Source of the DNA: Bacilli bacterium
Lineage (GTDB): Bacteria; Bacillota_I; Bacilli_A; RFN20; CAG-826
NCBI GenBank assembly: GCA_017502465.1
Contig: JAFVUY010000119.1
Location: 31,583-95,582, forward strand
Direction of reading: 5' to 3'
DNA: 64,000 nt
Both the position numbers and the translations under genes were made by a program. The first letter of the stretch is position 1; the number at the start of each line of letters is the position of its first letter. Of this stretch, positions 47,220 to 48,082 are shown piece by piece. A model generated the notes under the pieces. The model ran no database searches, had not been told where the DNA came from, and saw only the letters and a program-made list of their open reading frames with translations.

Positions 47220-48082
47220 TGGTGCTGGAGATGGGAGTCGAACCCACACGAGGTAACCCTCAGGGGATTTTCGTACTACTCTATGTCGCCATAGCCGATT
47301 AAATAATCGTTGTAGTCTGGACTATGTCTTAACCATATGATAGGTTTCACTTAGGTTGCTGGTGTATAGTCTCTACACACTAATTTTTTAAGGCTTTATT
47401 TTTTCCTCTATAAGTTTCAGTTAAAGCATGGCAGTTAGGACATAAATAACGAAGATTTTCAATTCTATTATCAGAATTATCTCCATTTATATGGTCAATT
47501 TCAAGAGCAATTTCACCATCTTGCCAATGACCATCACATCCACATTTTACACACTTATATTCTAAAATTTTATGTCGTTCAACATAACCTCTTAAAACCT
47601 TTTGCGTAACTGGACTATTCTTTATAAATATTTCTTCTAAAGAATATTTTTCTTTACCCTTTTGAGGTAATTGATTTGGACTTTCGTGCCACTTTTGTCC
47701 AGTAAAATGAGAAATATCAATTTCATATTCTGCTATTTTCTTTTTTAAGGTTTGTTGAGCGCCTCCACCTTGTTTGCGACCAGCCTTATTAAGGACTTCC
47801 GCATAAGAATAACTATTCTAACAAAGTTCTTGGAGCCATTCTTTTGTATATTGACGCATTAAAAACACTTCCTTCCATTGTAATATGAAAATTGTGTCTA
47901 CCTATTTAATTACGTCTGCCCTAAAGAATTATTGGCACGGCGTTTTCTGTTCGCATTCGCCGTTTAGCCAGCTTCTACTCTAAAAGTTTCCTTTTAGGCA
48001 CTCTCTACAATTTTTGTAGTTCATCTTTGAGTGATGAAGAACAGATTAAAGTCCCCGGTGTCTACCATTCCACCACTCCAGC
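47220..48082 (-). tRNA. tRNA-Leu (UAA) interrupted by a 776-nt group I intron inserted between U34 and A35
   Basis: Exon 1 (48049-48082): GCUGGAG-UG-GUGGAAUGGUAGACAC-C-GGGGA-CUU. Exon 2 (47220-47272): AAAA-UCCCC-U-GAGGGUUACCUC-G-UGUGGGUUCGACUCCCAU-CUCCAGC-A-CCA. The 5' exon ends in U and the intron ends in G (..uacg). A long variable arm and A73 fit tRNA-Leu. The site is the same as in the classic cyanobacterial/plastid tRNA-Leu(UAA) intron. Confidence 0.65.
47347..47859 (-). CDS. HNH homing endonuclease encoded inside the tRNA-Leu intron; has in-frame TAG
   Basis: MRQYTKEWLQELC-TAG-NSYSYAEV... ..GEIALEIDHINGDNSDNRIENLRYLCPNCHALTETYRG (HNH motif). The ORF track misses it because of the TAG. 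Confidence 0.6.

Follow-up and report, generated by a model that had tools for sequence, protein, structure and literature searches.

A tRNA-Leu(UAA) gene of a TAG-recoded phage is split between U34 and A35 by a group I intron carrying an HNH endonuclease gene

The 64-kb stretch of DNA analyzed here (64,000 nt of contig JAFVUY010000119.1, hereafter the window) belongs to a phage that reads TAG as a sense codon and contains a tRNA-Leu(UAA) gene split by a group I intron with an HNH endonuclease gene; the tRNA-Leu gene is one of 25 in a tRNA array confined to the minus strand. Exon 1 (48049-48082, minus strand, as are all parts of this gene and its intron described below; GCUGGAGUGGUGGAAUGGUAGACACCGGGGACUU) comprises 34 nt, nucleotides 1 to 34 of the tRNA, and its 3' end, ...GGGGACUU, has U34 as the last base. 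Exon 2 (47220-47271; AAAAUCCCCUGAGGGUUACCUCGUGUGGGUUCGACUCCCAUCUCCAGCACCA) starts with AAAAUCCCC and extends from A35 through the encoded CCA. The intervening 777 nt (47272-48048) begin with UAAUCUG and end with GUACG, with the terminal guanosine (omega-G) at 47272, and the boundaries are unique because the bases flanking the two junctions differ. When joined, the exons were folded by ARAGORN into an 86-nt type II tRNA-Leu(UAA) with a long variable arm, perfectly complementary halves and the encoded CCA; an intron-less tRNA-Leu(UAA) gene reads GGTAGACACNGGGGACTTAAAATCCCC. The split gene was called neither by ARAGORN at default settings nor by the Rfam tRNA model. An earlier interpretation made from the letters of the DNA (hereafter the sequence-only reading) had proposed a tRNA-Leu(UAA) interrupted by a group I insert between U34 and A35, with a 5' exon ending in U and an intron ending in G. 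The observation was confirmed, with U34 at 48049, exon 2 starting at 47271, U as the first and G as the last base of the intron, although the length of 776 nt given there was one short. Its equation of the insertion site with that of the cyanobacterial and plastid tRNA-Leu intron is borne out at the level of position, the cyanobacterial position being established knowledge.

An open reading frame (ORF) occupies the loop of P6 (47347-47859), with its ATG at 47859 and a TGA at 47349-47347, and is preceded by a Shine-Dalgarno-like GGAAGGAAG (47868-47876) read from the sequence. In agreement with the proposed HNH endonuclease gene, its product matched Pfam HNH_3 with 30.7 bits (cut-off 24.8) and HNH with 22.8 bits (cut-off 21.4), contained the corresponding motif with flanking zinc-binding cysteines (CVKCG...DHINGDNSDNRIENLRYLCPNCH) and matched PHROG 10822 (HNH endonuclease) over residues 2-156 with an E-value of 1.5e-52. 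The latter match runs across an in-frame TAG at codon 14 (47820-47818); a second TAG is found at codon 160 (47382-47380). Relatives align on both sides of the codon-14 TAG (YTKEWLxELC-x-xSxSxAEVL) and have K or A at that codon, which argues that it is translated. The in-frame TAG reported in the sequence-only reading is present, not as a defect but as a sense codon of a TAG-recoded phage.

Recoding was evident throughout the window. Single stops separating long ORFs in the same frame of the minus strand were TAG in five cases and TGA or TAA in none, and in a lysin gene (11030-12445) eight in-frame TAGs lie inside the Phage_lysozyme2, Peptidase_M15_3 and PG_binding_1 domains (four Pfam domains), the GIY-YIG and GDSL domains of the window also spanning TAGs. 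These counts of single in-frame stops and of Pfam domains spanning TAGs replaced the total of stop-to-stop ORFs under alternative codes, which was uninformative. In-frame TAGs were found mainly in endonuclease, lysin, tail-like and esterase genes, and a free-standing GIY-YIG endonuclease gene (6916-7629, minus strand) contains six of them. An amber-suppressor tRNA(CUA) with a U1-U72 mismatch and G73 is encoded about 0.85 kb upstream of the tRNA-Leu gene (48936-49010, minus strand). Among relatives, Q is the residue found opposite TAG, and W that found opposite TGA in other phages. TAG is probably read as glutamine, judging from these relatives and from the glutamine-like U1-U72/G73 acceptor end of the tRNA(CUA), and the endonuclease genes follow the code of their own phage. 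Because the phage reads TAG as sense and encodes the tRNA(CUA), the terminal TAG of the HNH ORF is probably read through to the TGA at 47349-47347, which would give an HNH protein of about 170 amino acids.

Both flanks of the ORF display, by eye, the four classical conserved elements P, Q, R and S of group I introns, and relatives were then sought with S and R. Searches of IMG/VR with the S element (TAAGACATAGTCCAGAC) retrieved 10 viral loci and those with the R element (TGTGTAGAGACTATA) at least 120 stretches in viral contigs; among the matches listed, 84 loci contained both elements. In about 50 of the listed viral loci with R and S, a tRNA-Leu is cut as ...GACUU / ...G / AAAAUC, as it is in the window (ARAGORN with its intron option). 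Intron lengths in this family ranged from 207 to 1087 nt, and in nearly all members with defined boundaries the intron ends in G. Members without an ORF (relatives are designated by L numbers) matched the Rfam group I intron model RF00028, namely L125 with 62.7 bits (E-value 1.5e-13), above the gathering threshold of 50 bits (an operational rather than a biological cut-off), L058 with 49.9 bits (9.7e-10), L062 with 46.4 bits (1.1e-08) and L030 with 45.4 bits (2.2e-08). Profile hidden Markov models of the 5' and 3' domains were built from 28 related introns, excluding that of the window. Each found a single match in the 64 kb, the 5'-domain profile at 48004-47932 (E-value 8.3e-10) and the 3'-domain profile at 47381-47272 (1.8e-24), flanking the ORF in the correct order. 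As profiles that exclude the window match only this locus, the resemblance is not due to chance.

RF00028 itself gave no call on the window locus in either gathering or E-value mode, the latter yielding 12.9 bits and an E-value of 2.3 over 47298-47454. The model fails because the 556-nt ORF-bearing loop separates P1-P6 from P7-P9, and the miss thus reflects a limit of the tool rather than absence of the intron. The sequence-only reading had proposed cmsearch with RF00028 as a check and the lack of a detectable group I core as part of a refutation; the former does not work on this locus and the latter would have given a false negative here. The group I identity it proposed is nonetheless borne out by the RF00028 matches of the ORF-less relatives, the family profiles matching both flanks and the covariation of the core.

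For the analysis of covariation, 29 ORF-trimmed family cores were aligned with MAFFT (alignment A1) and the canonical group I structure was written onto the alignment. In these cores 91.7% of cells were paired, compared with 31-38% when the partners were slid by one to three columns; 36 of 58 pairs showed changes on both sides, and none of 500 shuffles reached the observed measures. The helices follow the canonical group I order P1-P2-P3-P4-P6-P7-P3'-P8-P7'-P9. In the window, the 5' strand of P1 consists of A31, C32, U33, U34 and U+1 (48048-48052) and faces the internal guide sequence AGAGU (48000-48004), whose G at 48003 forms a wobble pair with U34; the P1 loop contains two local hairpins (48005-48038) predicted by RNAfold. 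Among the 29 family members the U34/guide pair is UG in 26 and CG in three, and the pair between position +1 and the guide sequence switches between AU (12), UA (10) and CG (2), which fixes both P1 and the 5' splice site. P3 is formed by GCUGG (47968-47972) and CCAGC (47358-47362), pairing across the ORF, and was paired in 100% of the cores, with all five of its pairs compensatory and at least 14 different P3 sequences in the family. P4 (ACGGCG, 47958-47963, with CGCCGU, 47937-47942) was 94.7% paired in the family alignment. The alignment misplaces P4 of the window by a few columns, for which reason it was read directly; compared with the family sequences UCGGCG/CGCCGA it has a U-A to A-U swap. 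P2 (47976-48000, capped by a GAAA tetraloop), P8 and P9 with P9b also covary. P9 (ACUAC/GUAGU, 47275-47316) encloses P9a (47296-47309) and P9b (47281-47294), and RNAfold recovered P2, P9, P9a and P9b from the window's own halves.

P6 (GC, 47935-47936, with GU, 47377-47378) closes the ORF-bearing loop and is constant across the family except for one U-G replacing C-G. P7 pairs G[A]GACUA (47367-47373), within the R element, with UAGUCC (47319-47324), within the S element, and the G-C pair beside its bulged A is the putative guanosine-binding site. J8/7 (UUAAGACA) is found at 47325-47332 and P8 at 47333-47355. The latter contains CCUAAG...UAUGG, the classical 11-nt receptor of GAAA tetraloops, and both this motif and the GAAA of L2 are conserved in the family; the sole member with GUAA in L2 (L069) has a plain helix in place of the receptor motif. 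The loop L9b belongs to the GNRA class and reads GCGA in the window. IC3 introns are defined by a compact core without P2.1, P5abc and P7.1/7.2, residence in a tRNA anticodon loop and L2 and L9 tetraloops that dock to helix receptors. With about 221 nt outside the ORF loop and neither P2.1, P5abc nor P7.1/7.2, the intron is a compact, tRNA-borne group I intron of the IC3 type.

ORFs of the same family were found in the P1 loop (L005, L008, L035, L048), in the P5 loop (L010) and in the P6 loop (the window, L001, L004, L012 and others), and many members of the intron family have no ORF, as would be expected if the endonuclease gene moved on its own, separately from its intron. This distribution bears on a reading in which there is no intron at all, a free-standing HNH cassette having landed in the anticodon loop beside coincidental group I likeness. 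Free-standing HNH genes are common in phages, and blastn of the whole locus against deposited phages returned similarity of the HNH part only, a search with the 3' core alone adding two weak core matches (cr115_1 and LR756511). Such a cassette would not explain why both flanks of the ORF match the family profiles (E-values of 8e-10 and 2e-24), why ORF-less relatives are Rfam group I matches, why relatives carry the ORF in three different loops of the same RNA, or why P3 pairs across the ORF with full covariation, and we regard this reading as already refuted.

A motif of the form GGGCAGAC(G)...(A)GGYAGACA accompanies the HNH cassette in whichever loop it resides. In the window it is located at 47921-47895; it was also observed upstream of the P6-loop ORFs of L013, L087, L121, L012 and L113, and at the start of the P1 loop in L001, L005, L035, L048 and L051. 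It may serve as a promoter or translational signal, or mark where the mobile ORF unit is bordered.

The intron of the window departs from the canonical fold in P5. The strands of P4 are only 14-15 nt apart in the window and in eight relatives, leaving no room for a hairpin, and the canonical IC3 P5 is lacking; most other family members have a normal P5. The segment between the P4 strands is instead perfectly complementary over 6-7 nt to positions +3/+5 to +10 of the intron, just 3' of the 5' splice site. In the window, UCUGUUC (+4 to +10, 48039-48045) pairs with GAACAGA (47946-47952), which lies in the P4-closed loop at the place of the P5 hairpin. The corresponding pairs are UCUUGGC with GCCAAGA in L001, CUUAGC with GCUAAG in L023, L113 and L119, CCCUGAU with AUCAGGG in L028 and L055, UGUGUUU with AAACACA in L042 and L045, UCAGAA with UUCUGA in L114 and CCAAUA with UAUUGG in L094. 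In all nine members of the subclass considered (seven sequence types) the two strands match perfectly over 6-7 pairs; six pairs are reached by 6.9% of shuffles and by none of the 68 combinations across types. The minimum-free-energy fold of the window's 5' half computed with RNAfold contained the pairing unaided, with a z-score of -3.25. L018 was also listed with this covarying subclass, beside L001, L023, L028, L042, L045, L055, L094, L113, L114 and L119. The complementarity suggests a pseudoknot replacing P5, by which the helix at the 5' splice site is tied to the P4 stack. We know of no described equivalent, in a literature that could not be searched effectively on this point.

Several observations weigh against a functional, mobile intron at this locus. 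Rfam finds no group I intron there, the score of RF00028 being below its threshold; P5 is non-canonical; and P6 consists of only two pairs (G-U and C-G) that have to enclose a loop of 556 nt. P7 and the receptor motif are invariant in the family set and so receive no support from covariation; this invariance is partly a matter of ascertainment, because the set was retrieved with the R and S sequences, and it counts neither way. Read-through at codon 160 would bring ribosomes into P7, P3' and P8 and could compete with folding. Lastly, a near-identical intron-less allele of the window's tRNA-Leu was looked for, and the best candidates had at most 68 of 86 identities.

One explanation compatible with these points is a decayed relic, whose ribozyme no longer splices and in which a tRNA-Leu(UAA) pseudogene merely carries an endonuclease gene. 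The core that Rfam does not detect, the missing P5 hairpin and an ORF that may read into the core all agree with decay, as does the neighboring tRNA (47128-46200), which seems to be simply disrupted by a GIY-YIG gene that no ribozyme surrounds. Decay would not, however, be expected to leave all conserved core positions of the family intact, P1, P2, P3, P4 and P9 with standard pairs only, a replacement of P5 that covaries over seven sequence types, and tRNA halves that are perfectly complementary and retain the encoded CCA. We therefore consider a relic improbable. An equally small chance is given to a genuine group I intron that requires a protein helper, be it the HNH protein in the role of a maturase or a chaperone supplied by phage or host. 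The weak P6 that closes a long loop and the unusual P5 would fit such a requirement, and many organellar group I introns are known to need maturases. On the other hand, IC3 tRNA introns of similar size, those of Azoarcus and Anabaena, self-splice efficiently; the stabilizing tertiary motifs are in place (the GAAA loop with its 11-nt receptor, the GNRA loop of L9b and the pseudoknot); and HNH proteins are not known as maturases.

Our preferred reading, to which we assign a probability of roughly 85%, is that an IC3-type group I intron, which would splice itself and home, lies between U34 and A35 of the tRNA-Leu(UAA) gene of a large TAG-recoded phage. The pre-tRNA would be transcribed from the minus strand within the array of 25 tRNA genes. 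By the general group I mechanism, free guanosine bound in P7 would attack the bond after U34, and the freed 3'-OH of U34 would then attack after the terminal G, joining U34 to A35. The anticodon stem formed between the exons (GGGGA/UCCCC) may aid their alignment, as reported for Anabaena pre-tRNA-Leu. Full-length HNH protein would be made only when the phage tRNA(CUA) decodes TAG, and the protein would most likely nick or cut intron-less tRNA-Leu(UAA) genes, the repair of which would copy the intron in. Intron-less tRNA-Leu(UAA) genes that share the identical 17-nt anticodon arm are abundant among viral contigs.

The intron family was not restricted to viral contigs. A scan of genomes detected at least 21 further loci with both core elements (L127, L138, L179 and 18 others within L132-L241), all ORF-less members in tRNA-Leu(UAA) genes, from metagenome-assembled genomes (MAGs) of rumen and gut Clostridia, Bacteroidales/Paludibacteraceae and Anaeroplasmatales. 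Three of them, on rumen or gut Clostridiales, Clostridia and Paludibacteraceae MAG contigs whose neighboring genes were scanned, adjoin ordinary metabolic genes, and no other tRNA gene was found nearby at any of the 17 genome loci checked for it. Given these neighbors and the lack of nearby tRNA genes, the genome copies are most likely chromosomal, and the family appears to be common to phages and their likely host lineages. Matches of the scan in cyanobacteria (Calothrix, Microcoleus and others) were discarded as chance 15-mer matches without intron context, and provide no link to the cyanobacterial introns. In Patescibacteria, related introns that share the R element interrupt other tRNAs.

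Variation in host gene and insertion site was also observed among the viral members. Three of them (L012, L097 and L118) reside in tRNA-Leu(CAA), where the 5' exon ends in C34 and forms a C-G pair with the guide G in place of the near-universal U-G wobble. L036, L037, L075, L082-L084, L092, L096, L102 and L112 have the same R and S elements and a short P8 with no tRNA exons; they probably represent related group I introns that interrupt protein-coding genes. L006 (854-1128 of a 410-kb viral contig) is an ORF-less member in a tRNA-Leu(UAA) whose exon 2 begins with CUUAAAA. It was rejected as a clean ORF-less reference, having no match to RF00028 and an apparent insertion at an odd position, nucleotides 31/32, with an exon ending in A; either its splice site is odd or the copy is defective.

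The same intron family also splits the amber-suppressor tRNA(CUA), after U35 (loop CUCU/AA), in L002 (at about 7.0-7.3 kb), in L010 and in the crAss-like phage cr115_1 (NC_055898.1). In the last of these the intron copy, at about 30.5-30.9 kb (L246, 1345-1645), is unannotated. Since intron-split tRNA(CUA) genes are missed by standard tRNA finders, some recoded phages considered to lack a suppressor tRNA may carry one.

Directly downstream of the tRNA-Leu gene, a second split tRNA occupies 46200-47128 (minus strand). Its halves, 5' GCGGGTGTGGTATAACGGCTATTACTTCTGCCTTCG and 3' AAGCAGACAACGTGGGTTCGACTCCCATCACTCGCTCCA, join to a tRNA-Arg(UCG) and are about 854 nt apart, separated by a GIY-YIG endonuclease ORF (47007-46264, with one in-frame TAG) that is flanked by only about 85 nt and 25 nt. 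No arrangement of this gene places a U ahead of the splice site together with a terminal G in the intron, no Rfam ribozyme match was found, and a search for an intact allele gave only chance palindromes. Either the gene was broken by a free-standing endonuclease gene or the insert is removed in an unknown way. Other unusual tRNAs on the minus strand of the window are one (50747-50880, Rfam 55 bits) with a 59-nt hairpin-forming insert in the anticodon loop, far below group I size, a 96-nt tRNA-Ile(UAU) with a long variable arm (60242-60337), a tRNA with an 8-nt anticodon loop and an anticodon read as AAAG (53373-53446) and a weak tRNA-Tyr-like call with a 39-nt insert (50448-50573). Within the tRNA array, ROOL RNA (56681-57355, 305 bits) and drum RNA (51543-51652) are encoded on the same strand, and the tRNA arrays of related phages (L062, 2879-3444; L004, 5822-6158; L005, 2396-2508) contained ROOL, OLE-like RNA, RAGATH-33, skipping-rope RNAs and tmRNA. 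Further away, a gene at 30780-33221 (minus strand) encodes an 813-amino-acid protein in which Pfam identifies the shoulder domain of the major vault protein (MVP_shoulder); it shares 35% identity with proteins from the huge phages LR756501 (735 kb) and LR756500 (462 kb).

A wider reading, which we put forward tentatively and consider less likely to hold in full than to fail in some part, is that these loci belong to a family of mobile group I introns, large and so far undescribed, in the anticodon loops of phage tRNA-Leu(UAA/CAA/UAG) and amber-suppressor tRNA(CUA), present also in tRNA-Leu(UAA) genes on the chromosomes of Clostridia and Bacteroidales from rumen and gut. In recoded phages, expression of the endonuclease would be gated by the phage's reassignment of a stop codon, and in a subclass that includes the window a pseudoknot would tie the 5' splice-site helix to P4 in place of the P5 hairpin. 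If so, where the suppressor tRNA is itself the interrupted gene, splicing could set the timing of the genetic-code switch, and suppressor tRNAs would be hidden from standard tRNA finders. In textbooks, the cyanobacterial and plastid tRNA-Leu(UAA) intron stands for the ancient, immobile kind, and the family would provide a mobile, endonuclease-bearing vehicle for an intron at that very site. Horizontal spread becomes directly testable with endonuclease-bearing introns at the identical position in phages and gut bacteria. For annotation, default ARAGORN and the Rfam tRNA model miss such genes, including split amber-suppressor tRNAs in recoded phages, which may explain part of those in which no suppressor tRNA was found. 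The pseudoknot in place of P5 would be a natural variant of the group I fold, open to compensatory mutation.

According to a 2014 review of group I introns in bacteria, every intron known from phages at that time was in a protein-coding gene, though phages carry many tRNA genes; the dozens found here in phage tRNA genes remove this exception. The literature searched, which leaves most subscription journals uncovered, contained no description of group I introns in tRNA genes of phages or in suppressor tRNAs, and this is therefore no proof of novelty. A recoded intron endonuclease in a protein-coding gene was described by Borges et al. (bioRxiv 10.1101/2021.08.26.457843), who argued that recoding delays its production, and the same logic would apply to the HNH ORF of the window.

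Among known systems, the closest in host gene is the tRNA-Leu(UAA) intron of cyanobacteria such as Anabaena PCC 7120 (Kuhsel 1990, Xu 1990, cited in PMC3984707). The host gene type, the position after U34, the group I chemistry and the available exon-exon anticodon stem are the same, whereas the Anabaena-type introns are ORF-less and regarded as ancient and vertically inherited, and that of the window resides in a phage, bears an HNH gene and shows a pseudoknot for P5. The R and S elements of the window (GUAGAGACUAUA and ACAUAGUCC) differ from those of Anabaena and look closer to the Azoarcus type of IC3. The tRNA-Ile(CAU) intron of Azoarcus sp. BH72, an IC3 intron with crystal structures (cited in PMC3984707), shares the small tRNA-borne core of about 205-220 nt and differs in its tRNA and site, the lack of an ORF, a normal P5 hairpin with a second receptor and its location on a bacterial chromosome. 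The likeness extends to the GAAA of L2 facing an 11-nt receptor in P8, a GNRA loop in P9 and R and S elements that look nearly identical.

An endonuclease gene in a tRNA intron has a precedent in the Synechocystis tRNA-fMet group I intron, which encodes I-Ssp6803I (Bonocora and Shub 2001, cited in PMC3984707). It differs in endonuclease family, tRNA, its cyanobacterial chromosome and the use of the standard code. I-Ssp6803I belongs to the PD-(D/E)XK family and not to HNH. Among phages, the DNA polymerase introns of SPO1 and SP82 carry the HNH genes I-HmuI and I-HmuII. I-PfoP3I of Pf-WMP3 is likewise encoded by an HNH gene of a phage group I intron that interrupts a protein-coding gene (PMC3428280). 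These introns share with that of the window the phage host and an HNH homing endonuclease gene looped out from a peripheral helix; they interrupt mRNAs, however, whereas the host gene in the window is a tRNA. Group I introns in tmRNA genes, found in many bacterial phyla and only occasionally with endonuclease genes (PMC11915505), also reside in a tRNA-like structural RNA, but in its T-loop rather than the anticodon, with LAGLIDADG genes and as described from bacterial genomes. The intron of the window is set apart from the known tRNA-Leu introns by its phage tRNA host, its HNH gene, the recoding of that gene and the pseudoknot in place of P5.

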